DNA from: Blasia pusilla
Lineage: Eukaryota
Direction: 5' to 3'
Assembly (NCBI GenBank): GCA_050084515.1
Contig: CM114271.1
Coordinates: 47,120,001-47,184,000 of the forward strand
DNA: 64,000 nucleotides
The translations under genes were made by a program, and so were the position numbers. A model generated the notes under the pieces. It did not search any database. It saw only the letters and a list, made by a program, of their open reading frames with translations, and was not told the DNA's origin. Positions 11,539 to 57,706 of this stretch are shown here, in pieces; positions within the stretch are counted from its first letter, which is position 1, and each line of letters starts with the position of its first letter.

Positions 11539-12309
11539 TGTCGTGCGCATATACATCGCTACACAACATACATCGATGTCATTGAACACACACACAAACA
11601 CACACGATCTCATACTAACTCATGGTATCCATCCACAGAGGCGAGAAGTACCAAAATATCTCCAATAAAGTAAGATCCAATCACTCTCTACACCATCTCA
11701 CACCATAGCTCTCAAAGGTGTGCACTCTCTCTGATGTCAAACCAAACCTATTCTCCTAATGAGGAGGCTTGGAGTACACTCACAAGGCAAGAGACCATAG
11801 CTCCGCCGCCTTCTGCCAAGAGGTTCAACAAACAGAGAATAAGCTCTCAAGCTCTCTCTCTTGGAGGTATACCCGCTTCCCTCTCCCAAGCCTTCTCAAC
11901 GATAACCTATGCTCGCAGGTCACCTCCTTGGCTCTTCACCTGCTGTACCAGGTTAAGGGCCACTTCCCAAAGTGGAAAGTAAACTATCCCTAATATGGAA
12001 ACTTACTCGAAATAGTAAGTTTCTCTATATGGCTCCAAATGAGCCGAAACGAAAGGGAAACCTTCTCTCTCAAGTTTCTCGGGGCTTCAACAGGTCATTC
12101 TCGACCTCATGGGCATGTCCTCCACTACTCGTGCAAACGCTCTATTAGATCCCACCGATCTATCCTAACAGTCGTGATAGTTGTAGTGCGCATACACATC
12201 GCTACACAACATACATCGTTGTCATCGAACACACACACAAACACACACGATCCCATGCTAACTCATGGCATCCATTAACACATGTGAGAAGTACCAAAAT
12301 ATCTCCAAT
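11539..12309 (-). repeat. 3' terminal A-B-A repeat block of copy 1
   Basis: ~128-bp A repeated at 11539-11666 and 12182-12309, flanking ~510-bp B that matches 20831-21342. Confidence 0.92.
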
Positions 12310-12496
12310 CGCCCCCGTAGCTGGTGGTTAGGTCCCTCTAACTCCAGACAGCCATCTATCCCTACCTACCATGACATACATCTCTAGGACGCTAAGAGCA
12401 GAAAGGCCGGGTGCTCATGAGGCCCCATCGTTAGTCGCCTTTCTATCATCCATGTCATAGAAAAATTTGGAATCGAAACCTTCCTAGTATTTCCTC

Positions 12497-12645
12497 TATG
12501 TACATCTAGGACACATCCATTGTCCTCAAGGAACCCTAGTGAGAGGTGGCGTTAGACATGCCATATGCCAACCTCTCAAACATCCATCACAAACTAGCAT
12601 CGTGGTCGCACCACGAGCAGAACCACACAACATACAACGCAAGTC
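12497..12645 (-). pseudogene. PHD finger at integrase C-terminus (copy 1)
   Basis: CMLCGSARGATTMLVCDGCLRGWHMACLTPPLTRVP*GQWMCPRC = C4HC3 spacing, one premature stop. Confidence 0.9.
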
Positions 12646-13610
12646 TGTAGAAACTACTGCTGAGCTTAGATCTACTGTACCATCAATGTTAGGAAGGTGA
12701 CATGGCGCACAATTACGCACATGGTCCTTCCATACCATACCATCGCATCCCTCCAGCAAGACAACACCGGATGGCAAAACGTCACGCACTCTCAGCATAG
12801 TGTGTCCTGCAGTCGCATCCAACGTCGTCGGTGCCGTCTGCTGCAAGTAGACATAATCTCCTTGATGAAACCTCCGGATAGTTGGTCGATAACCACCACC
12901 CCGAATAGTCACATACCTCAACATATCCCGATGTTGCGCAATCGCCAAGTTCTCAAACGCCATGGGCACCGCTCTCAGAAACAACTCAATCCTCTGAGAA
13001 CATGCTCGCATTCATACATCTGAGTTATTAAAGTCCAGCACCTCATCAGCATCTCGACAAATGGCAGCAGGTAAATCTGGCTCTTCGCCATAAAGTAGCA
13101 AGTACGGTGAAAAAGACGCTAAGGATGCTTGTCTGCTGAATCTGTATCCCATCGCCAACCACGGCAACTAGAGGTTCCAATCTCCTAGGTGACCTCTCTA
13201 CAAGCCATACTTGCGTAAACCACTCTTCACCGTATGCACAACTCTCTCCGCTAATCCATCCGCCTCTGGATGATCTCGCGAAGTCGTGCGATGGTCGATC
13301 AGCGCCTCATCATACAAGGCCTCGAACTCACCGCAAAACTTGGTACCCTGGTCTGTCAACACCTCAACCAGTATGTCAGTCTAAATGCCTGGCCACCAAT
13401 ACCGAATCTGGAGCAAGCTATACGTCCGCTTCATCCCAAAGTGACCCAACTCCTCGTGGGCATGCTGCACTAGTCGTGCTCTCTGCAAAGGATGCGGCAC
13501 TACGCGTACTCTACCATCCTCCCAAATCCTCAAAACATGTGTCCCCTTCCAACGGAATCGTCTGGCACGCTGTAGGATCCGAACCTGCTCTCTAGCACCC
13601 ACGGTGCTCT
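12646..13610 (-). pseudogene. DDE integrase (copy 1; internal deletion in core)
   Basis: HAHEELGHFG..YWW zinc-binding start, VLTDQGT, ADGLAERVV, SPYLLLYG. The segment seen in copy 2 at ~48775-49070 is missing near 13375. Confidence 0.88.
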
Positions 13611-13849
13611 CAACGCTCTACCAGTACAAAGGTACTCCAAGACTACTCCATCATAATGAATATCTTGGTCACCTGTCATCTCCTCACTGGCCTCGGGATC
13701 CAAGGACTCTCCATTAGACCTCGCCATCAAAGTCTCCACACTCTGGCTCTCCATAGCCAACATGCCTAAATAGGCTGACGCGTGCATCCTGGCACTGACT
13801 CCTCATCACTCTCTCCATGCCATCGAGCTCCAATCACATCTCGTTGACT

Positions 13850-15150
13850 CGGGCATGGATTACGACTCAACCCATCTGCATCCTGGTTGAGCGTCCCAGG
13901 TCTATGTTTCACCTGAAAAATCATACTTCTGCAACAACAGAGCCCATCTCGCAAGCTTTCCTGTAAGCTTGTCGGGCTCCATCAACCACTTTTGTGGTTG
14001 ATGATCAATGATGATGGTAAAGGGGTTGCCAAATAAGTAACACCTGAAATGCGTGACAGCCCATATTGCAGCCAAGCACTCACCCTCATACGAGTTGTGC
14101 TTTGCCTCTGCAGCGTTGTTCGAGCGGCTAGCGTAAGCCACCATGAACTCTCTACCCTCATCATCATGATGGGTGAGTACCGCTCCAAGCCCCAACATGC
14201 TCCAATCTGTGTGCAATTGGAAAGGACGCCCGTTGATCGGTCTCCTCAAGATGGGTACGGACGTCAACCTGTCCTTGAGTAACTGAAATGCTCGCTCTTG
14301 CTCATCCCCCCAATGCCACTCCTGATCCACCTTGGTCAGCAAGGTTAGCGGCTTTGCAATCAAACTGAATCCCTTGACGTACCGCCGATAGAAGTTCGCC
14401 AATCCCATGAATGCACGAACACAGCTCATATCTATAGGCCGTGGAATGTGTGAGATAGCCTCTACCTTCGTCTGCTGAACACCAAGGCCCCCTAGGTATA
14501 TCGTATGACCCAAGTTCTCAATCTGCAAGAAGAGAAGAACTTGCACTTGCCTGGATGTAATTGCAATCGTCAAAACACCTCCTCTAGATGTCGCTCATGC
14601 TCCTCAACCGTGGCGCTGAAGACTACTGTATCATCAATATAACACCTAGAAAAATCTAGAACAGCCAAGATCCTATCCATGACCCTCTGAAACTCTGAGG
14701 CGTTCTTTAACCCAAATGGTCAGAACCACCATTAATACAAACAATCCTTCCCGTGAGGATCGATGCCCCAAAATGCCGTCTTTCGCACTTTTGTCCTCCA
14801 ATCGATAATACCGATGGTATCCGGCTCACAAATCCAATGAACTGAAGACCTTTGCTTGACCAATTGCATCAAAGATCTCCTTAGGGGTGGGCATGGCATA
14901 CCTATTGGACTTCGTCTGTTGATGATAGGTTGGTAATCCCCACACATCCGCCTATCCTCTAGTTGTCATGCACATCCTTCTTGGCGGGCATGATACTGGT
15001 AGATGCATACTCCCCATGCGACATCTCCACTAGTCTTGCTCCAACCAAGTCTTGGCTCCTACTCTAAATCAGAGCCCTCTCCATATCATTGTACTTGTAG
15101 CATCGTCGGAAAATCGGCGTATCACTAGACAACTCAATGCGGATCCCCGG
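13850..15150 (-). pseudogene. Reverse transcriptase + RNase H (copy 1)
   Basis: MCGDY, KTAFWG, CYIDD, LGHTIY, FMGLANFYRRYVKGFSLIAKPL, FQLHTDWS..GLGAVL, VAYASR, YEGECLA, IIDHQP. Confidence 0.93.
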
Positions 15151-15639
15151 TCCCTTCAGTGTACCCAAATCCTCCATGCTAAATGCAAAGCAGCTCCTAT
15201 AACTCCTGAGGAACTGATGTATTCGGCGCCCCTCTCCTCCTGTCAACTTAGGGCCCATATCTAGCTACCAAGTCTCCATCGTGACTACGGTAGGACTCTC
15301 CGACGCGGATATCGCTGGTTGCTATGGTGCAACCCCGTCTCAAACAACAACACTCGGCCGCTCTCCTGCAACCAATTGCAAACTCTGATCTCCTCCACGA
15401 GGAGTGCGCGAAACCACGCTCGATGCTGTGGCTATCATCTCCTAGCGTACCTGCTAAAACATCCCAAGAAGTCCAAGGATGTCTCTCCCGATCTCCCCTA
15501 GTGTGTAGATCTCCTCGGGTCTCGCCCCAGCCACTACCTCCATCGTCTCGGTAGGCATGGGGCTCACCAACGCAACCACTGTAATCTGTCGCGATCTCAT
15601 ACGGTGTTGCTCAGCCACTCCCAAGCTGAGGATCCATGT

Positions 15640-16560
15640 CAAGCAATTCAGGTCCATCGCCTAACCCAAGACATGGCGTCGTGATGCCTCTTACACTGAC
15701 GGTACTTCCGTCACTCCTGTGGGAAATCCCATCGCTCGCTCTCTCTCGTCGGCGTCGGGCTCCACCAACCGCTGAACCTGGTCATCCCAAACCAAGCCAA
15801 GACCGGCCTCCTTGTATGCATAGGAAGCGGGAACGTGGGCAAGGCTGCCCGCTGCCTGCCTACCCTGTTGACCACAGTCAACGGTGGTCGATCATCGTGC
15901 CTCACTGCCTGTGATCGACGACCTGGATCCAAAATGGAATCCACTAACAAATGGGAGGGGCGCTCCACTCTCGCATACGTCCTGCGTAACACCGCATGGG
16001 GCACCAAGTTGGTCCACCATAGACGCGGGCGATGGGCTTTAGAACCTACACTCGCCGCATCCAAGAACACTGCTGGGCCGATCCAGGCACGCACCTACTG
16101 AGCACTCGTCACCACCCGTGACCTGGAGTCTCCTAAGATCGGCACATTCTCCATAATGTAGGCTGGAGAAAAAGAGTGGTGCTCTTGCAACTGCCGTAAG
16201 ACCCTCAACATCTCCCAAAACAACTTGGACCGAGTGTCATCCAACCCGGAGCCTCGTCCAACACTCGATTGGCCCTGACATGGCCAACTGGAAATGACCA
16301 AATCAATGGTCCCTACCCGCTCTAAGTCCTGTGCCCCCAGCAAGGAAATATCCCTCGGTAGGGAACTCTGGTACCCCTGTACGGCGGACGCAGATAATAA
16401 GTCGAGAAAATGTAGGCCTAACTGCGCCACATGTCGTAGTGAGACGCGCCTCGCAACATCATCACTCTCCACATACAGGTACTCCTGCACTCGCACTCTT
16501 GCTTGCAAAACAACAGCTAACCCGGTGCTAATCCCTCCAAAGAGATCTAATACTCGAATA
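15640..16560 (-). pseudogene. C5 cytosine DNA methyltransferase domain (DNMT3-like) inside pol (copy 1)
   Basis: Motif I VLDLFGGISTG, II YLYVE, III PRDI, IV IDLVISSWPCQGQS, SKLFWEMLRVL, VI YIMENV, VIII AHRPRLWWTN, IX ERERAMGFP, X VLG*AMD, in canonical order. Confidence 0.93.
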
Positions 16561-16759
16561 CCCTCCTTCGGGATACACCACACAATGGGTGTGGCATCCA
16601 AGGGTGTCATCGTAGCACTCCCTGCTACCTCGGGTTCTCAAGACCCGTCACGCTCCGGTGCAAACGCCTCGCTCTACTAAGGTCGCCTCCTCTCATGGTT
16701 GTCGCTCGATCATTGCATCTGTGAATTGAACGGGTAATGAGCTAAGGCGTCCATCACCT

Positions 16760-17180
16760 AACTACCATCCTGGTCTGTAGGATGCTGACTCCTCCAAGTA
16801 ATCCAGGGAAAACCCCATCGGGTATAACATTGCTCCACCAACCAAGACGTCGTAGGATTCTGCATCAATCACTATCGCCTTGGCTCGCACCATGGACTCA
16901 TCTGTAGGATGTCCAGGGCAAATCCTCACCACGACCTCCTGTCGGGTGATATACTGTGTGGTACTCGCTCGCTCCACCCAAGGATGTTTGTATCCGGAAT
17001 GGACAACGCTCCACATTGGCTCTTGTCAAGCCCAATCCTCTGAATGACGCTTTCCCCAACATCAGGGGTTGTGCTCTTGAATCCAACAAGACGCGTTGCA
17101 GACTAAAAGCTCTAGCTCCGAGACTCACCAACCGGAATACCTCTCCTCGGTTATCCAACAACACAACACCAGGAGAAGCC
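16760..17180 (-). pseudogene. Aspartic protease (copy 1)
   Basis: RVLLDSRAQPLML (DSG in copies 2 and 3) and YDVLVGGAML. Confidence 0.85.
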
Positions 17181-17779
17181 ATGGCACGCTCTATCGCGGG
17201 TCTAGCGGGCATCTCCGCCATCCTAGCAGTCGCAGCTTGCCATGAATTTGACGTGGACGGCCCGAGCATCTGCTCCAAGGGCAGGTCCATCACATCCTCT
17301 ACAATCACCTGTGAACGTGATACAGGAACTCCAACTCCGCGCTCACATAGTGAAGTGGCCAACCAAAAGCCTCGGTGAGCGTATCCCCCAACGTCATAAC
17401 AACAGAAGCAAAAAATAAAGGAGTGCGGTACACAACGGTGGCCGCCCCCAACAACGTGCTCGACACATGTCCCTCCTGAGCATCAACAATAGGAGTCGTC
17501 GCACTCGCTTCTCCCATCGCCCTTCATGCCTACACACCAACAACATCACCAACTCTCTAGGAACTTTGATGAGGATCCATCGATGGGGTCCTCATCGCTT
17601 TGGACAACGTGAAAGACTGAGGAAGCCTAGTCTATTTTCTGGCTTCCCCTCGTTGTGGATCCAACTCTACGGCTGCCCCACGCATCACAACTCGGGCGGC
17701 CTCCATCTGGGCAACCCCGCACATCCAACTAGGATCCTCCATATCTCTCGCTGCTCCATATGATATCGATGCCACGGAT

Positions 17780-19400
17780 CCGGCATCGGGTAACCTCAAT
17801 GCCATAGCGGCAATCTGCTCCTGTAGCTGCTGTATCTGAGGAGCTATCCCAACCTCACGTCCGACGTCTCCCTTGACGCGTCTGGGTGGTGGTACTCTAC
17901 CTCCTCCACGGGCACCTCCACCACCCTGTTGGGCAACTCTAGCTTCTCGTCCCCCAACGGGACCACCTTGTGCACGATCTCTAGGCCCACCTGGACCGGC
18001 TACTCGCTCTGGTGCCCTCTCTGGCCCTCAGTCCGGACGTAACTCAGGATGTAAACTGAAACACCTGGTGCATGTATGACCCTACCTCAGACAATAGTCA
18101 CACTGATAACCTCCAGGTGCAGCATAATCTCCTCCTCCATGTTGAGGCACACATCCATGACCCTGACGAGTGCAATCGCGGTGATGATGGGCTCCACCAC
18201 ATGACCAACAAGTAATAGTAGGCGGCTTCTGCTGAGTCTTGGAGTCCACGTTGCTGCACAAGTGGTGCAGCCAATCGTGACTGCTCTCGCCTAGAACCCA
18301 CGGTGGCTATGCTCTCCTCCTCCATATGGCGCTCAATGTTCTCGGCGGTCCTAAAAACATCTCTCAACGTAGGGGAGGTGTTCATAAGAAGCACTCTCCC
18401 TCCTGCACCCGTGTCTGCAAGGTCCGGTCCAACATCGCGTACCATGACTGGATAGCATGAGCCTTTGTCACCCCGTGAGTGACGTTGATCAACCGATGCA
18501 AGCGAGTGTAAGCCTCACGTAAACTCTCACCCGGGCGCCTCTAGAAGTCGTGGATGCTCCGCAACTTCTCCGTCCGTACCCCCTGGTAGCTCGCCCTCAA
18601 CTCAGCAAAGAACTCAACCACTCGGTTGAACCTGGGACGAACCCGACTAGACGGTGCAACTGCTCCAGTGCAAGTGACCCCACCTAAAAATGTCACTAGT
18701 GGAAGAGGAAGTAGCCTCTCCTGACTTCTCCTCCTCATCTGGGAACGGCTCCGTCCATGACACATAATGTGGGTCATAGTAGAGCCTCCACGCCTCGATC
18801 TCACGTACATATCTCTAAGAGAACTCATGGTAATCGTCCATGGGCGCCCCCTCTAAATGCTAGAACATACCGTTCCATGCTGTAAACGGGTTGAACTCTC
18901 TAGAGTTCCTGGCCTACTAGGAGTCGCACCAACTCCTAAACTCTGCTATAAAATCGTGCAACTCAATCGTGCCTACTACACCTGAAAACCTACGCGGTCC
19001 TCTGCCCCGGTCGTCCATCTCGTACGCCCAACTGGTAGGACCACTCACAATATGTGGCGATGTGCTCACAAACTCCTCTACACCCTCCCCTTGTCTGACG
19101 ATGACACACAAGGAGGTCAAGGTGGTCCCTCACGTGGAGACCCTCGAAACCTCGCGCGGAGACTCTTGGAACCTCGCGCCACTCCGCGTAAAACCTCTAG
19201 AGCTACTCTCGGGTTCACCACCTCGCCTCTCAAAGTCCCGAATGGATGCCGTGATGACCCTCATGCCCCTCTCACCCGATCACTCTCAACCTCGCGAGTA
19301 ATCCCTCAATCTCTCATCCCAAACATGCGGCACTCGATCTACACTCTCCCTCCCCGAGACATGTAACGTGCGACAACACGCGGCATGGTGCGGCAAATGA
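17780..19400 (-). pseudogene. Gag with CCHC zinc knuckle (copy 1)
   Basis: FFAELRASYQGVRTEKLRSIHDF.RRPGESLREAYTRL (Gag-like); CDYCLR*GHTCTRC = CX2CX4HX4C near 18059-18100. Start position approximate. Confidence 0.78.
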
Positions 19401-20830
19401 TCTAGGCTATCATCTCATTCACAACCTACTCTCAACTTCGGACATCCCACACAGGTCTATGTCCCCTAACCCGCATATATGAATGATGCTCTCTACATCC
19501 ACACAACCCAATATCCCCAAATAAACTACCAAAATCCCAGAATCCCTCACACATGTAGGGTAGAGGATCAAAATGGGTAACCTAAACACATGTCGATGTC
19601 GCTCCTCAGCAACTACAAATCTTGAACCCAACTCGGTCATGAAGACAACTCCTCCAATCAGCAAGTGGTACTCCTCTCATATTGACGCTGCTCAACCTCC
19701 TCGACGTGCGGTGCAGGTCGAGCGGTCCGGTGCGGCATTGGCGGCATGGAACGGCTACAAACAACACGGCACTCGGGAATGAGGTGCGGCACTCGACGGC
19801 ATATCCTCCTCAATCAGCAATTCACATGCTCTGCTCCTTAGTGAAGGAGCGGTTCCGTGATCGAGATGGTGCGGTGCGGCCATGAGCAGCACGGCGCAAC
19901 AATCGGCAGCGCGTTGCGGCTACGGGCGTCACGACACGGTACTCGATCTTTGTCGAGCGGCTACCAATCACAACATAGCAGTATGAAATCAAAACTCAAA
20001 CACCATAACTGAAGGTCATCTTCCATCACTGGTTGATGACAACACTGCGATGAAGGTGGCGGCCAAAACAAAGTACGTGGTGGCGACGCAAGTCAGAGAA
20101 TCAACGAAAGTCGTGGAAGACCCTCCACTCCGTAATGGCGGCAATAGCAACGAAAGGGTGGGCAACGGACAGTGGACCGTTGATAGTGACATTTGACTGT
20201 TGATGGTGATGATTGACCATCGATGTCAGACCGTTGACGGTGACTATGACGGTGACGGCCGGCGGCGGCGTGGTGGCTAGTTTAGGGTTTGAACAATTTA
20301 ACCCTAAAAATTACCTAGCAATGGCAGTTTTCCAAGATTGACCATAACTTTTTGCTCGCAACTCCAAATTGTGTATTGTTTTTTGCATAGCGTGCACAGC
20401 TTCATGGTCAACAAAAAAATCAAAAAATATTTAGAATCAGACATTCCAATAAAAATTGACAAGGACTCTTGTAAAGCCCAATGTCTCTTTCTCCTACAAA
20501 AAATTTGGCAACGCTTCCGCGCTGATTTCTCCCAAAAAAATGTAAAACCTGTAAAAATACAAATCAGCAAGCTACATGGTGCTCCCGAGAGCACCAGCAT
20601 GGGGCAACCCACCCCCATAATCAATCCCTATCAGAAATTGGGCAGCGCTTCCGCGCGCCACTCTTCCACACGAAAAATCGGCAAATGCAAAGAACAATCA
20701 AAGCAGCCCTTGCTCCGGTGAGCACTCCCATAAGCCGCTGAACAGGGAACACGGTCCGCAACCTGCAAAAACAGTGAGTGACGAGCGCGCTCCCCCATGA
20801 AGCTCTCTCATTCTTTCATTCTCTCTTTAT

Positions 20831-21342
20831 AAAGTAAGATCCAATCTCTCTCTACACCATCTCACACCATAGCTCTCAAAGGTGTGCACTCTCTCTCATG
20901 TCAAACCAAACCCACTCTCCTAATGAGAGGCTTGGGTTACACTCACAAGGCAAGGGATGATAGCTCCGCCGCCTTATGCCAAGAGGTTCAACAAAGAGAG
21001 AATGAGCTCTCAAGCTCTCTCTCTTGGAGGTATACCCCTTTCCCTCTCCCAAGCCCTCTCAACGGTAACCTATGCTCGCAGGTCACCTCCTTGGCTCTTG
21101 ACCTGCTGTAGCGGGTCAAGGGCCACTTCCTAAAGTGGAAAGTCAACTATTCCCAACATGGAAACTTACCAAAAATAGTAAGTTTTTCTATATGGATCCA
21201 AATGAGCCGAAACGAAGGGGAAACCCGCTCTCTCAGGTTTCCTGGGGCCTCAACAAGTCATCCTTGACCTCCTGGGCCTGTCCACCACTACTCGTGCAAA
21301 TGCTCTGCTAGATCCCACCGATCTATCCTAGCAGTCGTGACA
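20831..21342 (-). repeat. 5' terminal repeat B of copy 1
   Basis: Matches 11667-12179; element-sense start TGTCACGAC; no A segment adjoins it. Confidence 0.92.
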
Positions 21343-35310: not shown

Positions 35311-37859
35311 GCCCTTCCTAGCGCACCTAATTTTTGCTTGGTCCCAATTTGTTCTGATATCTTGTACCTTCGCTGCCACAGCCAAACGCTAAAGTGTGTT
35401 CTTGTATGTTCTATGTTGTAGGTTTGATTCTGCGGATGCTTCTTCCGAGCTTCGACTACTGATTCTTGCGTCTTTGCTACCATGGTAGAAGTGTAGTTTC
35501 TCCCTAAACCCAATCTATTCGGATATCTTGCGGCTTCGCTGCCTCAACTTAGCTTGTAGGCTATTATTCTACTATACATCATCGTGGTAATTAGCTCTTT
35601 TTAATATGGGACGTGTGCAAACCTCAAAATATTGCCAAAATTCAAGCAGGCGACCTTTTAGGATAAGTATACTTGACGGTAGAGCTAGGATGAGTTCCAT
35701 CCGATTGTGGGTACTTATCATATTTTCTCGTCTCAAGAAGATGGCTTGCACATCCCAGTGCATGCATTGGGCATGTGCTACTTGTTTCTTAAAGAAATGG
35801 CAAGCTATATGCTCATCCTCTATGAAAAATATGCACTGTTGTGGTTATTGTGGATATGTGCTCTAGTGCAACCCTCATCCAAAGATGGCAGTTCTCGAGG
35901 ATGCATCAAACCCGCCCTATGCATTATGCAATGGGTTTATGAAGGATTATGTCATACCCAGACTATGCCACTATCATGTCTCCGATCTGTGCCTCTAATG
36001 GCCTTCAAACTCATGTCAATGTGTATATGACTCCTTCTTATATCAAGCCTTTACTTCCTTGTAACCCACTTCAACTCCAACTACTATCCATAGTTGACTC
36101 TAGAATTGGAGTTGAAAAGAAATTTAATGGGTTCCATTGAATTTTTTTTAGTTACATCATTCTTAGACTATCCTTTCCTTGGCTTTAACCTTACCAACAA
36201 TGTGGCAAAAATTGAAGCTTCAATGCTACCAAGTATGATGTTACGTCTTTTAGGATAGATCGGTGAGATCTAGTAGAGCGCCTTTGTGAGTAGTGGAGGA
36301 CAGACTCTGTAGGTCGAGGATGACCTGCTGAGGCCCGGGAAACGTGAGAGAGCAGGTTTCCCCTTCGTTTTGGCTCATTTGGAGCCATATTGAAGAACTT
36401 ACTATTTTAGGTAAATACCATTTTGAATATATGATCAATTTTATATTTTTGGTAAGTGCCCCTTGACCTCCTACATCAGGTCAAGAGCCAAGGAGGTGAC
36501 TTGGGAGCATAGGTTACCATGGAGAGAGCTTGGGAGAAGGGAGGAGTATACCTCGAGGAGAGAGAGCTTGAGAACTCATTCTGTCTTTGTTGAACCTCTT
36601 GGCATGAGGCGGCGGAGCTATGGTCTTGCTTGCCTTGTGTGTGTAACCCAAGCCTCTCATTAGGAGAGTGGGTTTGGTTTCACATTAAGAGAGATATGTG
36701 AGAGTGCACACATGTGAGAACTATGGTGTTGTGAGAGAGATTGGATCTTATTTTAAAAGAGAGATTGCCGCTATGGCATTGAGGTTACCCGATGTCGGAT
36801 CCGTGGCATCGACATCATATGGAGCAGCTAGAGATATGGAGGATCCTGGTTGGATGTGCGGGGTTGCCTAGATGGAGGCTGCCGTAGTTGTGACGCGTGG
36901 AGCAGCCACACAGTTGGATCCACAACGAGGGGAAGCCAGGAACAGACTAGGCTTCCTCAATCTTTCATGTTGTCCAAGGCGATAAGGACCCCATCGATAG
37001 GTCTTGATCAGAGTTCCTGGAGAGTTGGTGATGATTTTGGTGTGCCGGCACGGAGGGCGATGGGAGAAGCGAGTGCGACGAATCCTATTGTTGATGCTCA
37101 GGAGGGGCATGTGTCGAGCACGTTGTTGGGGGCGACCACCATTGTGTATCGCGCTCCTTTATTTTCTGCTTCTGATGTTATAATGTTGGAAGGTATGCCC
37201 GTCGAGGTTTTTTGGCTGGCCGCTATGCTATGTGAGCATGGAGTTGGAGTTCTTGCATCATATTCAGAGGTGATTGCAGAGGAGGTGATGGACCTACCCT
37301 TGGAGCGGATGCTCAGGCCCTCCACGTCAGATTCATGTCACGCTGCGGCTCCTAGGATGGCGAAGATGTCCGCTAGACCCGCGATAGAGCGTGCCATGGC
37401 TTCTCCTGGTGTTGTGTTGTTGGATAATTGAGGAGAGGTCTTCCAATTGGTGAGTCCCGGAGATAGAGCTTTTAGTCCGCAACGCGTCTTGTTGGATTCA
37501 GGAGCGCAACCCTTGATGTTGGGGAAAGCGTCATTCAGAGGATTGGGCTTGACGAGAGCCGATGTGGAGCGTTGTCCATTCTGGATACAGACATCCTTGG
37601 GTGGAGCGAGTGCCACACTGTATATCACCCGACAAGAGGTCGCATCAGTCCGCATCACGGCTGCATCAGTCCGTGGAGGAGAGGTGCCGCTTTGGGGCTC
37701 GACTGAGGAGCTTCGACGCTTAGCCACTGAGCATGTGCAGACCGCGTGGAGCGAGACCCTTGCACTAGAGTGTGACGGGTCAGAGAAACCCCAGGTTGAC
37801 AAGAGTGCTGCTATGACCCCTTTGGACACCACCCGATTGTGTGGTGCATCCCAGAGGAG

Positions 37860-40100
37860 GGTATTCAGATGTTGGATCTCTTTGGAGGGATCAGCAGTCG
37901 GCTAGCTGATGTTTTGCACGCTGGAGTGTGCGAGCAACAGTACCTATATGTGGAGATTGATGATGTTACAAGGCACGCTTTACTTCACCATGTGGCGCTG
38001 TTATGCCTCCGTTTTCCCGACTTGTTGTCTACGTCCGCCATTCAGGGTTATCACACTTCCCTACCGAGGGATATTTCATTGTTGGGGGCGCAAGACTTGG
38101 AGCGGGTAGGGACCATAGACTTGGTCATTGCTGGTTGGCTATGTCAGGGCCAATCGAGTGTTGGACAAGGTAGCGGGTTAGTTGACACTCGGTCCCGGTT
38201 GTTTTGGGAGATGATGCGGATCTTGCGACATTTACAGGAGCATCAGCCTCGTTCTCTAGCATGCATTTTGGAGAATGTGCCAATTTTGGGCAATTAGAGG
38301 TCCCGCGTGGTGACCAGTGCACATATGGTGCGCGCATGGATTGGCCCGGCAGTGCTGTTAGATGCGGCGAGTGTAGGTTCTAGAGCACACCGCCCGCGTC
38401 TTTGGTGGACCAACTTGGTACCACATGAGGTATTACGGAGGGCTTATGCGAGAGTGGAGCGTCCCTCCGATTTGTTGGTGGATTCTATATTGGATCCGGG
38501 CCATCGATCACAGGAAATGAGGCACGATGATCGACTGCCGTTGACCTTGGTCAACAGGATTGGCGTGCCACGAGCAGCCTTTCCCACATTGGTGAGTTTT
38601 CCCGCTTCCTATGCATTCAAGGATGCCGGACGTGGCTTGGTTTGGGAAGACCACGTACAGAGGTTGGTGGAGCCTAACGCCAATGAGCGAGAGCGAGAGC
38701 GAGCGATGAGATTCCCCAAAGGGGAATCCCATCTGCGTTTTCTTCATGTTTGTTGCAGATCAGATGTGGAGGCAGGAGGTGAAACCGTTTTCCCAGCATC
38801 GAAGGTTAATGGTTCGACCTTTCCCAACTGGAATGAGTTGTCAAAATGTGCTAAAGCAGGTCTTTCTGTGCAACCTCGAAAGGGAATGGCATTACTGTTT
38901 TGGAGTATGAATCTTGATACAACATTGGATTCTAAGAGTCTTCACGGTAAGTTCCTCGTCGTGTCATAGATGTCTGAGAAGATAGCCTCCTCAGGTGATA
39001 CCCTTTGTGTTCCTTCCAAAACTTGTCGGATGTTGTTAGTAATTGAATTAAATATCTGTGAAGTGGTTTTAGTTAGTGGGTATTAACTCCAGTTCTTCCA
39101 GTTGGGAGTTAGAGTGGTTTCATTTACAAACTTGCTTGTATCCATGAGTTCTTATAGTTTGTCAATGACCGGTCCATTATTCAGTGGTCCTTCATGAGCC
39201 ACTTATCTTAATTTAATGTCATTCTCGTTGTCTCTTCAGGTGGTTTCCCGGTCATTGAAGGAAATAAGTGGTCCGCCACTAAGTGGTTACATGTGAACAA
39301 GTATGCTATGCCCTCTTAAGTATTGCATCTTCTCACTCAAGCTATCTTGTTATCCAACAAAACCGTTGGTTGTAGAGGTTAGGAGGGAATGGCTGTCACC
39401 AGACGGCACTGCATTATAGGTTCTTAATGCTTAATGTCTACAAAGTTATTTTGCAACTATGACTAAGATATGTTATTGTGATTCATTGGGTAAATGATTA
39501 CATTAATCATGCCTCTAGTTCATTATCATTTGTAACTGAAATGCTGATATCTATGTGTTTTTTGCTTGGATTTATGCCCCAGAGTGAAGACGAACCTACC
39601 ATTGTGTAGTGTCTTATCTGACCATCCTTGCATCCAGCTTTGGTACTGCAATCCAATAGTTCAGTTTGTATGTAGCAGTAGGCTCTCTAAATGTATTGAT
39701 GCAGTAGTGTCCCCGTGGTGCCATCAGTACAAGATTCAATCTTATGCTAAGTATGATCAGGTTGTAATTTCCTAGCAGTTGGGATCTTTCCTAGGCAATG
39801 AATTAAGGAAGACCCATTCATACTTTGGAGAACTCTCTAGTTGAGGATGTAGTAAGCTGACCTTCCATGAATGTTATAGTTAGCCCATATATTCAGATTC
39901 ACCTAGGGTGGTTGGAGTTTGTAACTGCTGTTAGGAACATTGAATATAAGAGTCCAACTGTAAATAGGAAGTGATTCCAACGGAGTAAAGGGGACATTTC
40001 ACTTTACACGAAGGAGTCACGGTAGTACCTCACTATTGGAGGCATCACAACGTCATGTCTTGGGTCAAGCGATAGACTTGAACTGCTTGATATGGATTCT
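37860..40100 (+). pseudogene. C5 DNA methyltransferase domain (copy 3), interrupted between motifs IX and X
   Basis: MLDLFGGIS, IDLVIAGWLCQGQS, ILENV, AHRPRLWWTN, ERAMRFP, then 1.3-kb insert, then HVLGQAIDLNCL. Confidence 0.9.
38734..40011 (+). pseudogene. Captured 3' fragment of a plant prolyl 4-hydroxylase gene (two exons, intron, 3' flank)
   Basis: Exon 38759-38946 SDVEAGGETVFP...WNELSKC...ALLFWSM...SLHG; GT-AG intron 38947-39239; exon 39240-39319 GFPVIEGNKWSATKWLHV...stop. Confidence 0.9.
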
Positions 40101-40539
40101 CAGTGTAGGAGTAGCTGAGCAACGTCGTTTGAGGATGCAACTGATCACAAAATTTGCGTTGGTGAGCCCCATGCCTATCGAGACGGTTGAGGCAATGGCT
40201 GGGGGCGAGACCCAAGGAGATCGACACACCAGAGGTGATCGGGAGAGACACCCTTGGACTTGGGATGTTTTGCAGATACGCGAGGAGATGATAGCCACAA
40301 CATCGAGCGTGGTTCCGGGTACTGCACGTGGAGATGAGAGTTCTAGTGTTCGAGACGGGGTTGTACCATAGCAACCACCGACATCCGTGCCAAAGAGTCC
40401 TATCGTAGTCACGATGGAGATTTGGGAGCTAGATATGGGCCATAAGTTGACAGGAGGATAGCAACGTCGGATACACCACTTCCTTAGGAGTTATAAGAGC
40501 TGTTTTGCATTTAGTATGCATGATTTGGGTACGCTGAAG

Positions 40540-41478
40540 GATCCACGGATCCGCATTGAGTTGTCGAGTGACACGCCGATCTTCCAAAGATCCTACAAGT
40601 ACAGTGACATGGAGAGGGCTTTGATTCATAGTAGGAGCCAAGACTTGGTTGGAGTAGGACTAGTAGAGATGTCGCATGGAGAGTATGCATCTGCCAATGT
40701 CATGCCCGCCAAGAAGGATGTGCATGGCAACTGGACGGATAGGCAAATGTGTGGAGATTATCCACCTATCAATCGGCAGAAAAAGTTCGATAGGTATGCG
40801 ATGCCCACCCTTGAGGAGATCTCTGATGCGATTGGGCATGCAAAGGTCTTCAGTTCATTGGATTTGCGAGCCGGATACCATCAGCTGCCTATTAGATTGG
40901 AGGACAGGCAGAAGATGATATTTTGGGGCATCGATCCTCATAGGAAGGATTGTTTGTACTAGTGGCGGTTCTTACCATTCGGGTTAAAAAATGCCCCGGC
41001 TGCACGTCAAGGGTTTTAGTTTGATTGCAAAGCCGCTAACCTTGAAGACCAAGGTGGATCAGGAGTGGCATTGGGGGGATGAGCAAGAGAGAGCATTTCA
41101 AATGCTCAAGGATAGATTGACGTCCACGCCCATATTGAGGAGACCCATCAGGGGGCATCCTTTCCAGTTGCATACCGACTTGGAGCATGTTGGGGCTTAG
41201 AGCTGTGCTCACCCAACATGACAATGATGGTAGAGAGTTCGAGGTTGGCTTATGCTAATCGCTCGAACAACACTGCAGAGGCAAAGTATAGCTCGTATGA
41301 TGGTGAGTGCTTGGCCGTAGTGTGGGTTGTCACACATTTCAGATGTTATCTATTCGACAATCCCTTTACCATCATTAGTGATCATCAGCCACTTAAGTGG
41401 TTGATGGAGTCCGACAAGCTTACAGGGAAGCTTGCAAGATGGGCTCTTTTGTTGCAAGAGTATGACTTCCAGGTGGTG
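40540..41478 (+). pseudogene. RT (partly deleted) and RNase H fragments of copy 3
   Basis: VFSSLDLRAGYHQL, PFGLKNAP, then a jump near 41003 to VKGFSLIAKPL; ARWALLLQEYDF. Confidence 0.88.
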
Positions 41479-44400
41479 TAAATGAATAACCAAATGTGGA
41501 ATGTTGATTAGACACGCTTTCTACCCAATCAGCATATGTGAATCCCTATAATTGAAAACTCAGAGAAGGTTCAAATTGTAGCCCGAATTGAATAGAGAAT
41601 TTCACATACCGCATAATCCTCCTCACAGCATCAAGGTAAGGTTTTCGAGGTGCTTGCATAAACTAGCTCACTAGGCCAACATCATAACTCAAATATGGTG
41701 TGGTTATAGTTAGATAGATCAAACTTCTAACCATGCGCTTGTACATATTAGAATCTGGAAGAAACTCTCCTTCATCCACTCTTAGCTTCACACTCTACTC
41801 CAACCGTGTAGAGATTGGCTTACAAGCCGTTATACCATATTTTGAAAGCATATGAAGAGAATATTATCGTTGTAGTAACCACATGCTCTCTCCAACCTTG
41901 ATAAACTCAATACCAAGGAAGTACTTGAGTTCTCCCAAGTCTTTCATATCAAATTCTGCTTGTAACCTAAGCTTGACTTGTTGTACCATTTCTTTAGTAC
42001 TCCCAGTAATCAGGAGATCGTCAATATATAACACAATGAGAACCGTATGATCTTGTCCTCTCAAGACTTATACCGAGGAGTGAGAATCACATATCCTAAA
42101 ACCCAACTCTTGAAGGACGTATGTAATCTTGCCATACCAAACTCTTGGAGCTTGTTTGAGCTCGTATAGAGCTTTCTTCAATCTGCATACGTGAAATGGA
42201 AACTTGGGATGCTCGTATCCGGGTGGTTGAGTCATATATAACTTCTCGAATAGATCTCCATTCAAAAAGGCATTCTTGACGTCCATGTGATATAATCTCC
42301 ACTTCTTACTTACTATAACTGCAACCACTATTCTCATAGTCGCCATCTTTGCAACATGGCTAAATGTTTCCTCATAATCGATACTATATTGTTGTGCATA
42401 GCCCTTAGTCACCAATCTCGCTTTATATCTTTTAATTGTACCATCTTGATTGCGGTTGATTTTGTAAACCCATTTGCAACCAATAGCTTCCTTACCCGAA
42501 GGTATATCAGCCAGCTCCCTTGTTTGTTGATGTCTTAATGCAGCAAGCTCTTCCTCCATAGCTTCAATCCATTCGACTTTACTTGCAGCTTCTTCAAAAC
42601 AACTCGGCTCCTATTCTTGAAGGGTAGTCATCATATATGCATGATGTGTCGCAAGGAAACCTTCATTTATGAATCTATGAATTGGATGTGTAACTCTACT
42701 TGATCTACGAAGTTGTTGTTTAGAGGTAGATGCCTCTAACACTTGACTCGAGCTCTGACTAGTGTCAACAGATTGAATACGTACTCTTCCCATCCATGGA
42801 CTCACAGATTCAACTGATGAATCTAGAACCTCTCCTAATCTTGCACTAGTACTTGGGGAAGTTGAAGACAATGTCTGTTGGTTTACAATCATATTCTTCC
42901 CCTCACCAAACGAGTGTAGAGGTGGAATAGGCTCAGATGAAGCATACCATGACTTTAGCTCATCAAAGATAATATCCCAACTAATAATAGGCTGCCTAGA
43001 GGATGGAATGTAGCACTTATATCCCTTAGTTCCATCAGCATAGCCAATGAAGATACATCTTTCAGACTTGGGGTCTAATTTCTGACGTCTCTCAGAAGGA
43101 ACATGAACATAACAAATATAGCCAAGTACTTTTAAGAAGGAAAAATTGGGTTTATTTCCTATGAAGACTTCGGATGGAGTTTTATCATGAACTCTTGCTG
43201 TTGGAGTTCGGTTGATTAAGAAGACTGCACATGCTACAATCTGCCCAATACACCTTAGACATGTTCTTCTCATTCAACATAGCTCGTGCCGCTTCAGCAA
43301 TATGTCGATTCTTTCTCTCAGCCACTCCATTTTGTTGTGGAGTGTAACGGCAAGTCACTTGAAGCTGGATGCCATTCTCACGTAAATAGTCATCAAACTC
43401 TGTTGAAAGATGCTCTCCTCCTCCATCCCAACGCAATTTCATAATGTGTTCTCCTGTCTGCTTCTCTACTAGAATTTTGAATGTTTGGAACACAGAGAAT
43501 ACCTCTGACTTGGCTTTTAGAAAGTATACCCATATATACCTAGAGAAGTCATCAATAAATGAAATAAAATACTCGCAACCACTAAGGCTATGTTGTGATG
43601 TTGTCCACATATCATTGTGGATCAACTCCAATATCTTGGATGCTCTTCTACCTTGCTTTGGAAAAGGAAATCTAGCTTGTTTTCCAAATTGGCAAGCAGG
43701 ACATACCTCTAACGTAGTAGGACTCGCTAATTTAGGGAGTCCTATTACTATATTAGATGATGAAAGACTCTGTAATGTTTGAAGATTCATACGTCCAGTT
43801 CTTTTATGCCACACATTCAGATCTATGACTTGTTGGCTGCTTTGACCATACAGTGTTGTTTGAATCTCTAGCATAGAAACATCTAATTTGAAAATTCTGC
43901 CAGATCTAGTTCCTTTGGCTATCGTAGTCTGGTCGTCCATTGTTTCAATGAAACAACCATCTGCGTTAAACTTCGCTTGATAACCCTCTTCTACTATTTG
44001 TCCTATAGAGATCAGGTTTCTTGCAATGGTAGGAATATAGAAAACATTTCCAAGAGCACAAAGACCATCTGATGCTATTGGAACTTTACCGGTATGCGTG
44101 ATATGCTATTAAGTGTCATCTCCTCTAAGCACAATTGCAAGATCTTTCACCGGCTCCAAACTAGTGAACCATTTATCTTGTGAGATCATGTGATTTGATG
44201 CACCAGAGTCAATGTACCAATCTGCTGTCGAGTCTTTCTTGACCATTGCTCCCATATGATGAGTCATAACCAAGAGATGCTCCGTTTGTGAATGTTGTTG
44301 TTCTTGGTACTGCTCTTGGTGTTGTTGCTCCACATAGTTTTGTTGTTGTAAGGCTCTTGTTCTCATATCTACCTTCTTCTTGAAGCAAAACTTTGCATAG

Positions 44401-45739
44401 TGATCCTTTATCCCACAGTAATTGCAAGATCCAGAGATCCTCTACTATTGACCTCGACCCCAACGGTTTCCACGGTTTACCTTGTGATTGTGTCTGGTAC
44501 TAGTTCTTAGTTGATTGAGTGATGTTATATTGAGTGCCTCTTCCTCCATATGCTCGATATCCACCACGACCACGGAAGCTTCTACCACGACCCCTGCCTC
44601 TGTTTGATCCATGATCTGCAAATAGCGCACTCTCTTGCAGACTAGACGAGCAACCGCTGCCTACTAGGCGTATCTCTTCACTGATTAATAGAGTGACTAA
44701 CTCTTGAAAGGTTGGATACTTCTCTCTCATAGAGATAGAGGTCTCAAAGGACTTGTAATCCTTTGGAAGGCCTTGAAGAGTGAACAAGATCAGATCAACA
44801 TCTTATACTGTCACTCCAATGCTATTCAACTGATCAACAATATGTGTGATATTCAAAATATAATCAATGATGCTCTACAATCCTTTCCTCACTTTGTTCA
44901 ATTGCTGTTTCAATTGAAGCTTTCAGGCCTTTATAGATGTCTGGAACAGCTTTTCCAATGCATCCCAGGCTTCCTTTGGAGTATCAACATCTTGAATGTG
45001 ACCTATCATTGGCGAACTGATCGTTATTGAAATATGATGGATTACTTGCCTTGTGCATTTGTTCTAGGCGCGAACATTCAAGTTTGTTGAGTCACATTTT
45101 GGCTTGGCCTCATCACCTGTGACAAGCTCCCATAGTTCTTGACCCATGAGAAATTTTTTCATGCGAAACTTCTAGACATTGTAATTCTTCTTATCTAGCT
45201 TCTCGCTTATGATTGCTGTTGAGGAATACTCCATGACAAACGATTTCACTCAGAAAAACATAATTTCAGGCTCTCTATTGCTCCAATTGAAGCATAGACC
45301 ACTCATACACAGAAATTGATATGAAATTTTCCAAAATTGATCAATTGTATGAAAGAACTAGTTGAAATTGACGTGTAGAGAGCAAACTGCATAACTTTTC
45401 TTCACTAATTGTACTTTCCTACACTGAAATTGCTACTGCAGCAACTCAGAATGTCAAAATTGAGCAATTTTGGATGTGTTGGAAAGCTCTCGACAAGCTC
45501 TATCAGAAAGCTAGAACATGTTTTTGGTGACATTCTAACCGATGCGGATTTAGATGGCTTAATCGATCGGGAAAGCCCTAAACAATGCCTCCAAAGTTTT
45601 ATCACTATCAAAGCTCCACCTGAAATCTACACCCATTTAGCTCTGAAAAAAAATTTCCTTCTCCCAAACTGAAATTGTGCCTTCTCTTGCCTCTCTTCTC
45701 TCCTCAAACACCAAGAATTTCAAGTGATATTCTCTTATC

Positions 45740-45751
45740 GCTCTGATACCA
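45740..45751 (-). promoter_or_regulatory. Primer-binding site (initiator tRNA-Met) of the Copia element
   Basis: TGGTATCAGAGC on the minus strand directly after the LTR-terminal CA. Confidence 0.92.
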
Positions 45752-46260
45752 TGTGGAAAACTGCTAAACAAGCATAACTAGTGGAAAACGGCTCTCACAC
45801 ACACACACCACCATGGAGAACGAAATTTGCAATGAGAGAATGAGTGGAGGCTAGTTCCCTTCTCAATTATATAGGGTATGTACAAGCAACCCTAACCCTA
45901 ATCTTAACCATAGTCTCGAGTTAGACTAACTATGATTAACTAACCATAGTTAAGATAATCTTGCTTAAGTGACTAACCAAGATTAAGCTTCTCTACTTCG
46001 TGTGAGTACCAAATGTAACAGTTTAGGTATCTCATGAGCTTGACTATAACTCAATCTTCAATATGGCGCAAGTTGGTGATCGAATATTATACGGAAGTGG
46101 ATACGGTGGACATCCTTAGACGCATGGTCATCATGGCGTTGGATCCTCATAGCTTGCGCTTAACTCACTAACCAAGATTAAGCTTCCCTACTTCATATGA
46201 GTACCAAATATAGCAGTTCATGTGTCTTATGAGCTTGAGTGTAACTCAATCTTTAATACA
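45752..46260 (-). repeat. Copia 5' LTR with an internal ~87-bp direct repeat
   Basis: TG...CA boundaries; ACTAACCAAGATTAAGCTT...AACTCAATCTT at ~45972-46058 and ~46167-46253. Confidence 0.85.
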
Positions 46261-46559
46261 CTAGAGCTCGTTGGCATGGTGAGAGTAATGAGGAGTTGGT
46301 GCTAGGATGGCATGCGTCAGCCTATTTGGGCTTGTTGGCTATGGAGAGCTTGATTGCTGAGACTTCGATGGCGAGGTCTGATGGAGAGTCCTTAGATCCA
46401 GAGGTTGGTGAGGGACGACAGGTGGCCGAGACATTCACGACGATGGAGTGGTCTTGGAGTACCTGCGTACTAGCAGCGTCACAAGCACAGTGGGTGCTAG
46501 AGAGCGGGATCGAATCCTACAGCGAGCGAGACGGTTTTGATGGGGGGCACACATGTGTT

Positions 46560-47268
46560 GCGAGTGTGGGAGGATGCGTGTAGTGCCTCATCCTTCGCAG
46601 AGAGCACGTTTGGTGCGTCATGCCCACGAGGAGTTGGGTCCTTTTGGAGTGAAGCGGACGTACAACTTGGTCACTTGCATTCTTAATGGTATGAGGTATC
46701 CTTGATAAGAAAGGTAATTAACTTGCCTGTGGCACTTACTAGATTGTGATGATACACAGATTCAACATTGGTGGCGAGGCATGCAGACTAACGTTCAACA
46801 ATTTATTGCCAGATGCATGGTGTGTGATTGAGTCCGAGCATCGTTCAATGCTCCGACTCCACAGTTGTATCCACTTCTGATCATGGGTTTAGGTTATAGA
46901 TGGAGTTTGGATTTTGCAGAACATTTGCCTTTGACAAAATGCCATAGTCGTTATGTGCTGGTGATGGTCGAGCACTTCTCGAAGTAGATTGAGTTAGTTG
47001 CATTGCTTGATAAAGCAAGTGAGGGAGTAGCGTATGCCTTCCTAGATCGAGTGTTGAGTCATTACGGCGCACCAGCTAAGGTGTTGACAGATCAGGATAC
47101 AGAGTTCCGCGGAGAGTTTCAGCCCTTGTGTGATCAGGCACTGATCGACCATTGCACTACTTTGCCAGATCATCCTGAGGCAGATGGACTAGCAGAGCTG
47201 GTTGTGCAAACGGTTAAGAGAGGACTACACCATATGGCTTGTAGAGAGGTCACCTAGGAGATTGGGAC
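46560..47268 (+). pseudogene. Integrase zinc-binding and DDE core of copy 3
   Basis: HAHEELG, CMVCD, RWSLDFA, VLTDQDTEF, ADGLAELVVQTVKRGL; cut at 47268 by copy 2. Confidence 0.88.
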
Positions 47269-48399
47269 TGTCGTACGCATACACATTGCTACACAACATA
47301 CATTGCTGTCATCGAACACACACACAAACACGCACGATCCCATGCTAACTCATGGCATCCAAACAATGAGACAAGAAGTACTAAAATATCTCCAATAAAG
47401 TAAGATCTAATCTCTCTCTACACCATCTCACACCATAACTCTCAAAGGTGTGCACTCTCTCTCATGTCAAACCAAACCCACTCTCTTAATGAGAGGCTTG
47501 GTTACACTCACAAGGCAAGGGACCATAGCTCCACCGCCTCATGCCAAGAGGTTCAACAAAGAGAGAATGAGCTCTCACGCTCTCTCTCCTTGAGGTATAC
47601 CCCTCCCCTCTCCCAAGCTCTCTCCATGGTAACCTATTCTCCCAAGTCACCTCCTTGGTTCTTGACCTGATGTAAGAGGTCAAGGGCCACTTACCAAAAA
47701 TATAAAGTTGATCATATACTCAAAATGGTAATTACCTAAAATAGTAAGTTCCTCAATATGGCTCTAAATGAGCCAAAACAAAGAGGAAACGTGCTCTCTC
47801 AGGTTTCCCAGGGCCTCAGCAGGTCATCCTCGACCTACTGAGCGTGTCCTCCACTACTCACGAAGGCGCTCTACTAGATCTCACCAATCTATCCTAAAAG
47901 ACGTGACAACTGTTGTGCGCATACACATCGCTACACAACATACATCGTTGTCATCGAACACATACACAAACACGCACGATCCCATGCTAACTCATGTGAG
48001 AGGTGGCATGAGACATGCCATATGCAGAACCACACAACATACAACGCAAGCCTGTAGGAACTACTGCTAAGCTTGGATCTACTGTACCATCAATGTTAGG
48101 AAGGTGACATGACGCACAATTACGCACATGGTCCTTCCATACCATACCATCGTGTCCCTCCAGCAAGAGAACACCGGATGGCAAAACGTCACGCACTCTC
48201 AAGATAGTGCGCCATGCAGTCACATCCAACGTCGTCGGTGCCGTCTGCTGCAAGTAGACATAATCTCCTCGATGAAACTTCCGGATAGTTGGTCGATAAC
48301 CACCACCCAGAATAGTCACATACCTCAACGTATCTTGATGTTGCGCAATCGCCAAGTTCTCGAACATCATGGGCATCACTCTCTAAAACAACTCAACCC

Positions 48400-49160
48400 T
48401 CTGAGAACATGCTCGCACCCATACATCTGGGTCATCAAGGTCCACCACCTCACCAGCACCTCGACGAATGGCCGCAGGTAAATCTGGCTCTCGGCCATAA
48501 AGTAGCAAGTACGGTGAAAAAGACGCTAAGGATGCCTACCTGCTGAATCTGTATCCCATCGCCAACCATGGCAACTGGAGGTCCCAATCTCCTAGGTGAC
48601 CTCTCTGCAAGCCATACTTGTGTAAACCCCTCTTCATCGTCGGCACAACTCTCTTTGCTAACCCATCCGCCTTGAGATGATCTAGCGAAGTCGTGCGATG
48701 GTTGATCATCGCCTGATCACACAAGGCCTAGAACTCACCGCGAAACTCGGTACCTTGGTCTGTCAACACCTCAGCCGGTGCGCCATAATGACTCAGCACT
48801 GTGTCAAGGAAGGCATAAGCTACTCCCTCACTCGCTTTGTCAGGCAATGGAGCCAACTCGATCCACTTCGAGAAGTACTCGACCATCACCAACACATAAC
48901 AACTATGATGCTCCGTCAAAGGCAAAGGTCCTGCAAAATCCAAACTCCATCTATACCCTAAGCCCATGATTGGTAATGGATGCAACTGTGGAGTTGGAGC
49001 ATTGAACGATGCTCGGACCCGATCACACACCATGCATCTAGCAATAAACTGCTGAACGTCATTCTGCATGCCTCACCACCAATACTGAATCTGGAGCAAC
49101 CTCTACGTCCGCTTCACCCCAAAGTGACCCAACTCCTCGTGGGCATGCTGCACTAGTTGT
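48400..49160 (-). pseudogene. DDE integrase with HHCC domain (copy 2)
   Basis: HAHEELGH..CMVC; WSLDFAGPLP; VLTDQGTEF; DGLAKRV; WDLQLPWLAMGYR. Confidence 0.92.
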
Positions 49161-49539
49161 GCTCTCTACAAAGGATGCGGCACTACGCATACTCTACCAT
49201 CCTCCCAAACCCTCAAAACATGTGTCCCCTCCCAACGGAACCGTCTCGCCTACTGTAGAATCCGATCCCGCTCTCTAGCACCCACGGTGCTCGCAACGCT
49301 GCCAATACGAAGGTACTCCAAGACAACTCCATCATCATGAATATCTCGGCCATCTGTCGTCTCCACACTGGCCTTGGGATCCAAGGACTCTCCACTAGAC
49401 CTCGCCATCGAAGTCTCCACACTCTGGTTCCCCATAGCCAACATGCCTAAATAGGCTAACGCGTGCCATCCTGACACTGACTCCTCATCACTCTCTCCAT
49501 GCCATCGAGCACCAATCACATCTCGCTGACTCGGGCATG

Positions 49540-57526: not shown

Positions 57527-57706
57527 AGTAGATAGTTCTACATTCCGACTTGTGTCTGTGACATGGATGACAAGAAGGTGACAAACGATGCGGCCACATG
57601 AGCACCCGACCTTCTTGCTCTTAACGTCCGAGAGATGTATGTCATGGTAGGTAGGGATAGATGGCTATCTGGAGTTAGAGGGACCTAACCACCAGCTAGG
57701 GGGTGG

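Follow-up and report, generated by a model that had tools for sequence, protein, structure and literature searches.

Uptake of DNA methyltransferase (DNMT) domains by retrotransposons is recurrent according to the parts drawn on here of two reports (PMC5890265; bioRxiv 10.64898/2026.05.21.726589). The closest described system is KnitGypsy-Dnmt3 of Klebsormidium nitens (de Mendoza et al. 2018; PMC5890265). According to the parts of that paper drawn on here, its pol is that of an LTR Gypsy element and includes, within the Pol frame, a DNMT3-type domain that is intronless and unrearranged; the repeats are arranged A-coding-B-A-B, and the DNMT is under purifying selection. Fig. 4c is described in its legend as showing DIRS-like repeats and Gypsy domains. 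In the same parts K. nitens is the only green plant with Gypsy-Dnmt3, and neither Marchantia nor Physcomitrella is mentioned. In yeast, some retrotransposon DNMT3s are reported there to have de novo activity at CG, and the corresponding assay with the Klebsormidium domain is reported as inconclusive. A second system, SymbioDIRS-Dnmt3 of Symbiodinium, is a retrotransposon that likewise has split repeats and a DNMT3-type domain in its Pol; it has a DIRS backbone with a tyrosine recombinase, and CG de novo activity has been shown in yeast. Chromoviruses are related in another respect, as they join a Gypsy backbone to a chromatin-reader module C-terminal of the integrase. A 2026 preprint refers in the part drawn on here to "streptophytes (Gypsy-DNMT3)", citing de Mendoza et al. 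2018 (bioRxiv 10.64898/2026.05.21.726589). In Sarre et al. 2025 the occurrence of DNMT3 in retrotransposons is noted "as previously reported", and according to Morozov et al. 2019 land plants "such as tracheophytes" lack transposons of this sort. We found no published description of bryophyte DNMT-Gypsy elements; the supplements of PMC5890265 and PMC12344493 may list some.

Here we analyse a 64-kb window of the liverwort Blasia pusilla, the term window denoting the whole stretch of DNA. A preliminary description of this DNA had pointed to DNMT-bearing retrotransposons and had cited de Mendoza et al. 2018 as precedent, which is a real one as far as the parts of PMC5890265 drawn on here go. Self-BLAST and tblastn with intact Marchantia proteins reveal three copies of one retroelement family, A, B and C (Table 1). 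In all three, homology to the Marchantia proteins follows the order gag, protease (PR), C5 methyltransferase (C5-MTase), RT, RNase H (RH), integrase (INT). Our main reading, to which we assign a probability of about 0.8, is that the three copies, of which C is nested in B, are dead members of a ~9.8-kb Ty3/Gypsy-type family with the organisation gag(CCHC)-protease-DNMT3-like C5 methyltransferase-RT-RNase H-integrase(H2C2+rve)-PHD finger and with split repeats arranged A-coding-B-A-B.

Table 1. Features of the window, in positions of the 64-kb stretch
Feature	Position	Strand	Basis
Copy A, whole element, ~9.8 kb, ends TG...CA	11539..21342	-	self-BLAST, ends read
Copy A, 5' repeat A1	20829..21342	-	90.6% identity to 11665-12177 over 513 bp
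Copy A, leader ORFs	19419-20815
Copy A, gag with CCHC knuckle CWSCGGAHHHRDC	17365..19030	-	tblastn to Marchantia P0006; ORF text
Copy A, protease, active-site DSG decayed to DSR	16723..17395	-	tblastn
Copy A, DNMT3-like C5-MTase domain	15508..16628	-	PF00145, motifs
Copy A, RT and RNase H	13623..15285	-	tblastn; PF17917 2.2e-32
Copy A, integrase (H2C2 zinc domain and part of rve core)	13198..13617	-	PF17921 1.9e-10; tblastn to P0033
Copy A, C-terminal ORF, PHD finger at end	12526..13011	-	PF00628 2e-7
Copy A, repeat B1, G-rich purine run before it	12182..12309	-	90.6% identity to 11539-11666
Copy A, repeat A2	11665..12177	-	self-BLAST
Copy A, repeat B2, element 3' end (...ACGACA)	11539..11666	-	self-BLAST, ends read
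Copy B, 5' part, most of gag absent	36239..47268	+	tblastn, self-BLAST, Pfam
Copy B, DNMT	37818-38723 and 40024-40269	+
Copy B, foreign insert in DNMT	38724-40011
Copy B, RT/RH	40423-41478	+
Copy B, foreign insert, Ty1/Copia-type element	41479-46263	-	named by eye
Copy B, integrase	46412-47268	+
Copy B, 3' part (tail, then B-A-B)	57083..58447	+	self-BLAST, ends read
Copy B, target duplication ATGA	36235-36238 and 58448-58451		by eye
Copy C, nested in copy B integrase, 5' A repeat truncated	47269..57046	-
Copy C, DNMT	51151-52277	-
G-rich purine run just upstream of B1	12310-12325; 57695-57706
ORFs resembling a Helitron helicase-like domain and a PIF1-type helicase	71-3904		named by eye
Tandem array, period ~115-117 bp	9809-10707
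Golgin-84 homologue	23884-26451

The pol region shows the Ty3/Gypsy order PR-RT-RH-INT and a DDE integrase. By Pfam, RT_RNaseH was matched in copies A and C, rve in B and C and Integrase_H2C2 in A, and RVT_1 was borderline in copy B (29.4 bits against a cut-off of 29.6). Gag and protease of the window copies were assigned from homology and motifs alone; the leader ORFs of copy A and three gag pieces gave no Pfam match. The protease motif, LLDSGAQP in relatives, which carry Asp_protease_2, reads LLDSRAQP in copy A. A PHD finger closes the last ORF of copy A, and PF00628 is listed for most of 49 relatives. No Chromo match was obtained in the window ORFs at E 0.01, so that the PHD finger stands in the place of a chromodomain. 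The family differs from chromoviruses in this exchange of modules, in its additional DNMT and in having split repeats instead of plain LTRs. The preliminary description mentions neither the split repeats at the ends nor the PHD finger that follows the integrase, nor the nesting of copy C in copy B. Copy B is moreover interrupted by two foreign inserts. The shorter one, of 1.3 kb, may be a captured piece of a host gene; it opens with a frame which we take to resemble a fragment of a 2OG-Fe(II) prolyl 4-hydroxylase (GGETVFP...ALLFWS). The longer one, nested in the RNase H/integrase region, was named from its CCHC gag, DSGASNH protease, integrase and RT.

Relatives of the methyltransferase domain are numerous. 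An exhaustive HMMER search with the relative P0001 returned 4268 representatives at E <=1e-3 and 269 at <=1e-30, and the best 150 of the 4268 are mostly long polyproteins. Among 218 proteins mapped, ~58 have the layout PR-DNMT-RT(-RH-INT-PHD), ~97 the layout RT-RH-DNMT-INT-PHD and 61 the DNMT domain alone. In a FastTree phylogeny of the DNMT with 159 rows, a side of 47 rows (SH-like support 98) holds all 28 PR-DNMT-RT rows, the three window copies and 11 metagenome loci among others, and zero rows of the RH-DNMT-INT type. In a quick IQ-TREE analysis of 65 of these rows, for which 33 rows were taken from the 47 and 32 at random from the 89 with the other layout, the layout split had an SH-aLRT of 96. 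Since the two layouts lie on opposite sides of one branch, a single change of layout is needed; both trees are unrooted and imply no direction, gain or loss. The three window copies group together (support 99-100) inside a clade of 13-16 rows with Marchantia and Calypogeia (96-98). One distant relative among the 49 listed is from Cymbomonas tetramitiformis, and the nearest protein-atlas cluster is labelled Streptophyta. We show that the family is the land-plant branch of a large Gypsy-DNMT3 superfamily.

Within this superfamily the Blasia elements are probably kin to KnitGypsy-Dnmt3, a kinship read from shared features, the element of the alga being compared by its description. Three unusual traits are common to both: the Gypsy pol, the unrearranged DNMT3-type domain inside it and the DIRS-like split repeats. 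They differ in the host, which is here a land plant with relatives of the family in mosses, and in the PHD finger after the integrase, a term that does not occur in the parts of the 2018 text drawn on here (PMC5890265). An independent gain of the DNMT by the bryophyte elements, with convergent likeness to the Klebsormidium family, is favoured by the recurrence of such uptake and by the comparison being one of descriptions; we consider it unlikely in view of the three shared traits. The kind of element is already known, and it is extended here by a land-plant branch, a PHD finger, the existence of two layouts and the combination of an integrase with split repeats.

Identification of the C5-MTase relies on profile, motif and fold. 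PF00145 scored above its gathering cut-off of 22 bits in all three window copies: 45.4 bits in copy A (E 9.7e-12, in a 180-aa open frame at 16095-16637, minus strand) and, with stops read as X, 38.2 bits in copy B (1.4e-9) and 34.3 bits in copy C (2.2e-8). On the tblastn map the domain lies between protease and RT in each of them. The preliminary description, which had placed a C5-MTase at the same position of pol in all three copies, is thereby confirmed. The extent in copy A, ~15508-16628, is slightly wider than the 15640-16560 given there. Motifs I, IV (PC), VI (ENV), VIII (RxR), IX and X follow in the canonical order, as had been claimed, some of them hit by stops or substitutions in the window copies; the wording LGQA for motif X is valid in copy B only, copy A having LG*AM. 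The 180-aa frame of copy A contains motifs I (LFGGISTG), IV (PCQ) and VI (ENV). After one in-frame stop follows motif VIII (RPRLWWTN), and motif IX (ERERAMGF) lies beyond a frameshift.

None of the copies is intact. The MTase of copy A has three stops (16097, 15693, 15663) and two frameshifts, that of copy B one stop (38295), a change of the catalytic PCQ to LCQ and the 1.3-kb insert, and that of copy C four stops and two frameshifts. All three window copies are pseudogenes, as previously described.

Concerning the class of the enzyme, the 180-aa piece of copy A has DNMT3A as its best match among solved structures (6.4e-7). A family profile of 30 aligned members run against PDB ranked DNMT3A first (8.8e-25), followed by DNMT3B (1.7e-22), plant DRM (1e-17 to 1e-14), M.HhaI (3e-9) and DNMT2 (1.8e-6). 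The AlphaFold (AF2) model of the intact relative P0001 (368 aa), built on the 30-row alignment, reached a pLDDT of 90 and a pTM of 0.89 and replaced an earlier model from an 11-row alignment (pLDDT 46.9). With this model every top Foldseek match was DNMT3A, 3B or 3C, the best being 6w89_A (E 3.5e-19, target-normalised TM 0.83). The strength of the Pfam, PDB-sequence and fold matches argues against a chance assignment. The rankings by E-value and by predicted fold support a DNMT3-like enzyme, in agreement with the resemblance noted before. Set beside host DNMT3A/3B and plant DRM2, the element MTase has the fold and the motif order of DNMT3, the source of the best sequence and fold matches. It differs from them in having no PWWP or ADD domain and in sitting in a polyprotein; its canonical motif order is unlike that of the rearranged DRM, and its identity to human DNMT3 is ~20-23%.

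The domain could have been retained in another capacity, either as a silent DNA-binding or regulatory module comparable to DNMT3L or as an RNA methyltransferase comparable to DNMT2. Activity of the present family is a prediction, and no methylation by the Klebsormidium domain was seen in yeast according to the parts drawn on here of PMC5890265. The 30 aligned members, however, retain motifs I, IV (PC), VI (ENV) and VIII (RxR); none departs from the catalytic Cys or the Glu of ENV, and the arginines of RxR are almost invariant. DNMT3L has lost such catalytic motifs, which counts against a DNMT3L-like role, and DNMT2 is a far weaker match than DNMT3A. We therefore judge such a role distinctly improbable and retain a DNA methyltransferase of DNMT3 type as the preferred assignment.

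The ends of the element are organised as A1-coding-B1-A2-B2. By self-BLAST, a 513-bp repeat A opens the element at the 5' end and recurs close to the 3' end, where a 128-bp repeat B flanks A2 on both sides. All three window copies have the 3' B-A-B end; the 5' A with no B preceding it was legible in copies A and B, copy C having a truncated 5' A. The full A...B-A-B layout is seen in all three metagenome loci that span both ends (L040, L056, L073), and partial split-repeat forms occur in L006 and L036. Copies A and B are old insertions, since their A repeats are just 90.6% and 92.0% identical, respectively. At its outer ends the element begins with TG... in A1 and closes with ...ACA in B2. Inspection by eye of five elements (copies A and B, L040, L056, L073) revealed 4-bp target duplications in three, namely ATGA in copy B, CATA in L073 and TCTC in L040, and found none in copy A; the flanks of L056 were ambiguous. 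The internal B1-A2 junction resembles the joined element ends with about two extra bases. A plain two-LTR layout was not found: the repeats are A...B-A-B, a purine run precedes B1, and no TGG-type PBS follows A1. The purine run is G-rich (CTAGGGGG-like) and conserved just upstream of B1, not of A2, at two places in the window (Table 1) and in L040, L056 and L073. Its position before B1 could not be fitted to a plain LTR replication scheme.

Split direct repeats are a hallmark of PAT-like DIRS elements in the parts of PMC5890265 drawn on here, and the family might thus be a DIRS/PAT-like element with a tyrosine recombinase instead of a Gypsy element. We regard this as very improbable, since the DDE integrase (rve, H2C2) is present, the tyrosine recombinase PF00589 is listed for none of the 49 relatives and was absent from the scanned window ORFs, the RT_RNaseH domains are of Gypsy type, and the TG...CA ends occur with 4-bp target duplications. 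The DDE integrase, the Gypsy RT/RH and the target duplications equally set the family apart from SymbioDIRS-Dnmt3. For a Ty3/Gypsy-type element, the coexistence of split repeats with a DDE integrase poses a replication puzzle.

Distribution and selection both speak on whether the MTase belongs to the element. A word-indexed search found 34 longer proteins in Marchantia polymorpha, Calypogeia fissa, Sphagnum and others. Marchantia P0006 is an uninterrupted 1278-aa gag-PR-DNMT frame, and P0021 is a PR-DNMT-RT-RH protein. The layout PR-DNMT-RT is shared by proteins of Marchantia, Calypogeia and Sphagnum, and a search with the single protein P0001 retrieved 80 metagenome loci that have it too. Of these loci 78 are broken, and a stop-free DNMT is found only in L004 and L006. 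Most of the metagenome copies (L001-L080) have many in-frame stops (1-17) and few frameshifts in the DNMT domain.

Ratios of dN/dS were determined on codons aligned through the Marchantia proteins. They amounted to 0.21-0.28 for the DNMT and 0.29 for the RT in the pair A-B, to 0.23-0.25 and 0.28 in B-C, and to 0.41-0.50 and 0.53 in the closer pair A-C. A higher ratio in A-C is expected if much of the divergence of this pair is neutral decay after insertion. As the DNMT values are close to those of the RT, selection maintained the MTase no less strongly than the RT during the divergence of the sublineages. We show that the family inherits the MTase as a module of its own, which purifying selection preserved during the active period of the family. 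The earlier claim that the domain is part of the element and not a one-off capture holds, given its presence in all three copies, the same arrangement in other bryophytes and selection equal to that on the RT. A single capture of a host DNMT3 gene or fragment by one element with three local duplicates, suggested by the nesting of copies B and C, the distance of only 15 kb to copy A and the unrelated captured gene fragment in copy B, is refuted by the cross-species distribution of the layout, and is hardly credible also in view of the 10-20% DNA divergence of the window copies and of the selection on the domain.

Between copies A and C, CpG transitions account for 161 of 802 substitutions, and CpG o/e is ~0.75; a strong signal of methylation decay was not seen in this A versus C mutation pattern.

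The family is abundant, as indicated by 210,431 contig pieces of it in a DNA run. Three RNA runs from 2026 under the species label of the DNA run that best matches the window have ~3900-4300 reads each on copy A at a likeness of at least 88%, with a strand bias of 10-20 fold. The favoured strand is the sense strand of the element if the libraries are, as usual, first-mate-antisense. Most reads are 88-95% like copy A, and just 12, 1 and 6 reads reach 99%, so that the RNA comes from other members of the family and not from copy A. Joints at which the RNA "goes back" or "skips" were considered as circles or splicing and rejected, as they match the B1-A2 junction and the equivalence of A1 with A2 and of B1 with B2. 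RNA depth could not tell A1 from A2, and transcript ends were hence not placed. Separately, 9, 20 and 3 reads of the three runs skip 1054 bp in RT/RH (14099-15154) without GT..AG ends, which points to an expressed deletion derivative in the family.

The remainder of the window holds further features. A golgin-84 homologue consists of a single uninterrupted 855-aa frame, with best named matches in Riccia fluitans (53%, full length) and R. sorocarpa, then in mosses and ferns; this fits a land-plant host, most probably a liverwort at some distance from Riccia. An intronless golgin-84 would be unusual for this gene, and the frame may be a retrocopy. ORFs that resemble Helitron-like and PIF1-type helicases occupy the start of the window, and a tandem array adjoins a low-complexity, charge-rich ORF region (Table 1).

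In intact members the MTase would be made as part of Gag-Pol and may travel with the replication or integration complex. It could then methylate the new DNA of the element at cytosines and so set the epigenetic state of a new insertion. The role in release, packaging and methylation that the preliminary description had envisaged is the same inference as the proposal of the 2018 paper in the parts drawn on here (PMC5890265). By analogy with the chromodomains of chromoviruses, the PHD finger may read a histone tail and guide integration. The DDE integrase would insert linear DNA with TG...CA ends, and a copy of the two ends in joined form might be stored at the internal B-A junction, in the manner of DIRS/PAT-like elements. 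On a broader scale, and as a tentative, rather doubtful proposition, bryophytes may host an old, still active Gypsy lineage with a DNMT3 writer and a PHD reader, in which DIRS-like split-repeat replication is joined to DDE integration in a hybrid life cycle and in which the DNMT moved once within pol (PR-DNMT-RT versus RH-DNMT-INT); this lineage would possibly write part of the host methylome or have exchanged DNMT3 genes with its land-plant hosts. Marchantia polymorpha is a genetic model with annotated, partly intact relatives of the family. What a retrotransposon gains from a de novo methyltransferase would thus be testable in a tractable land plant.
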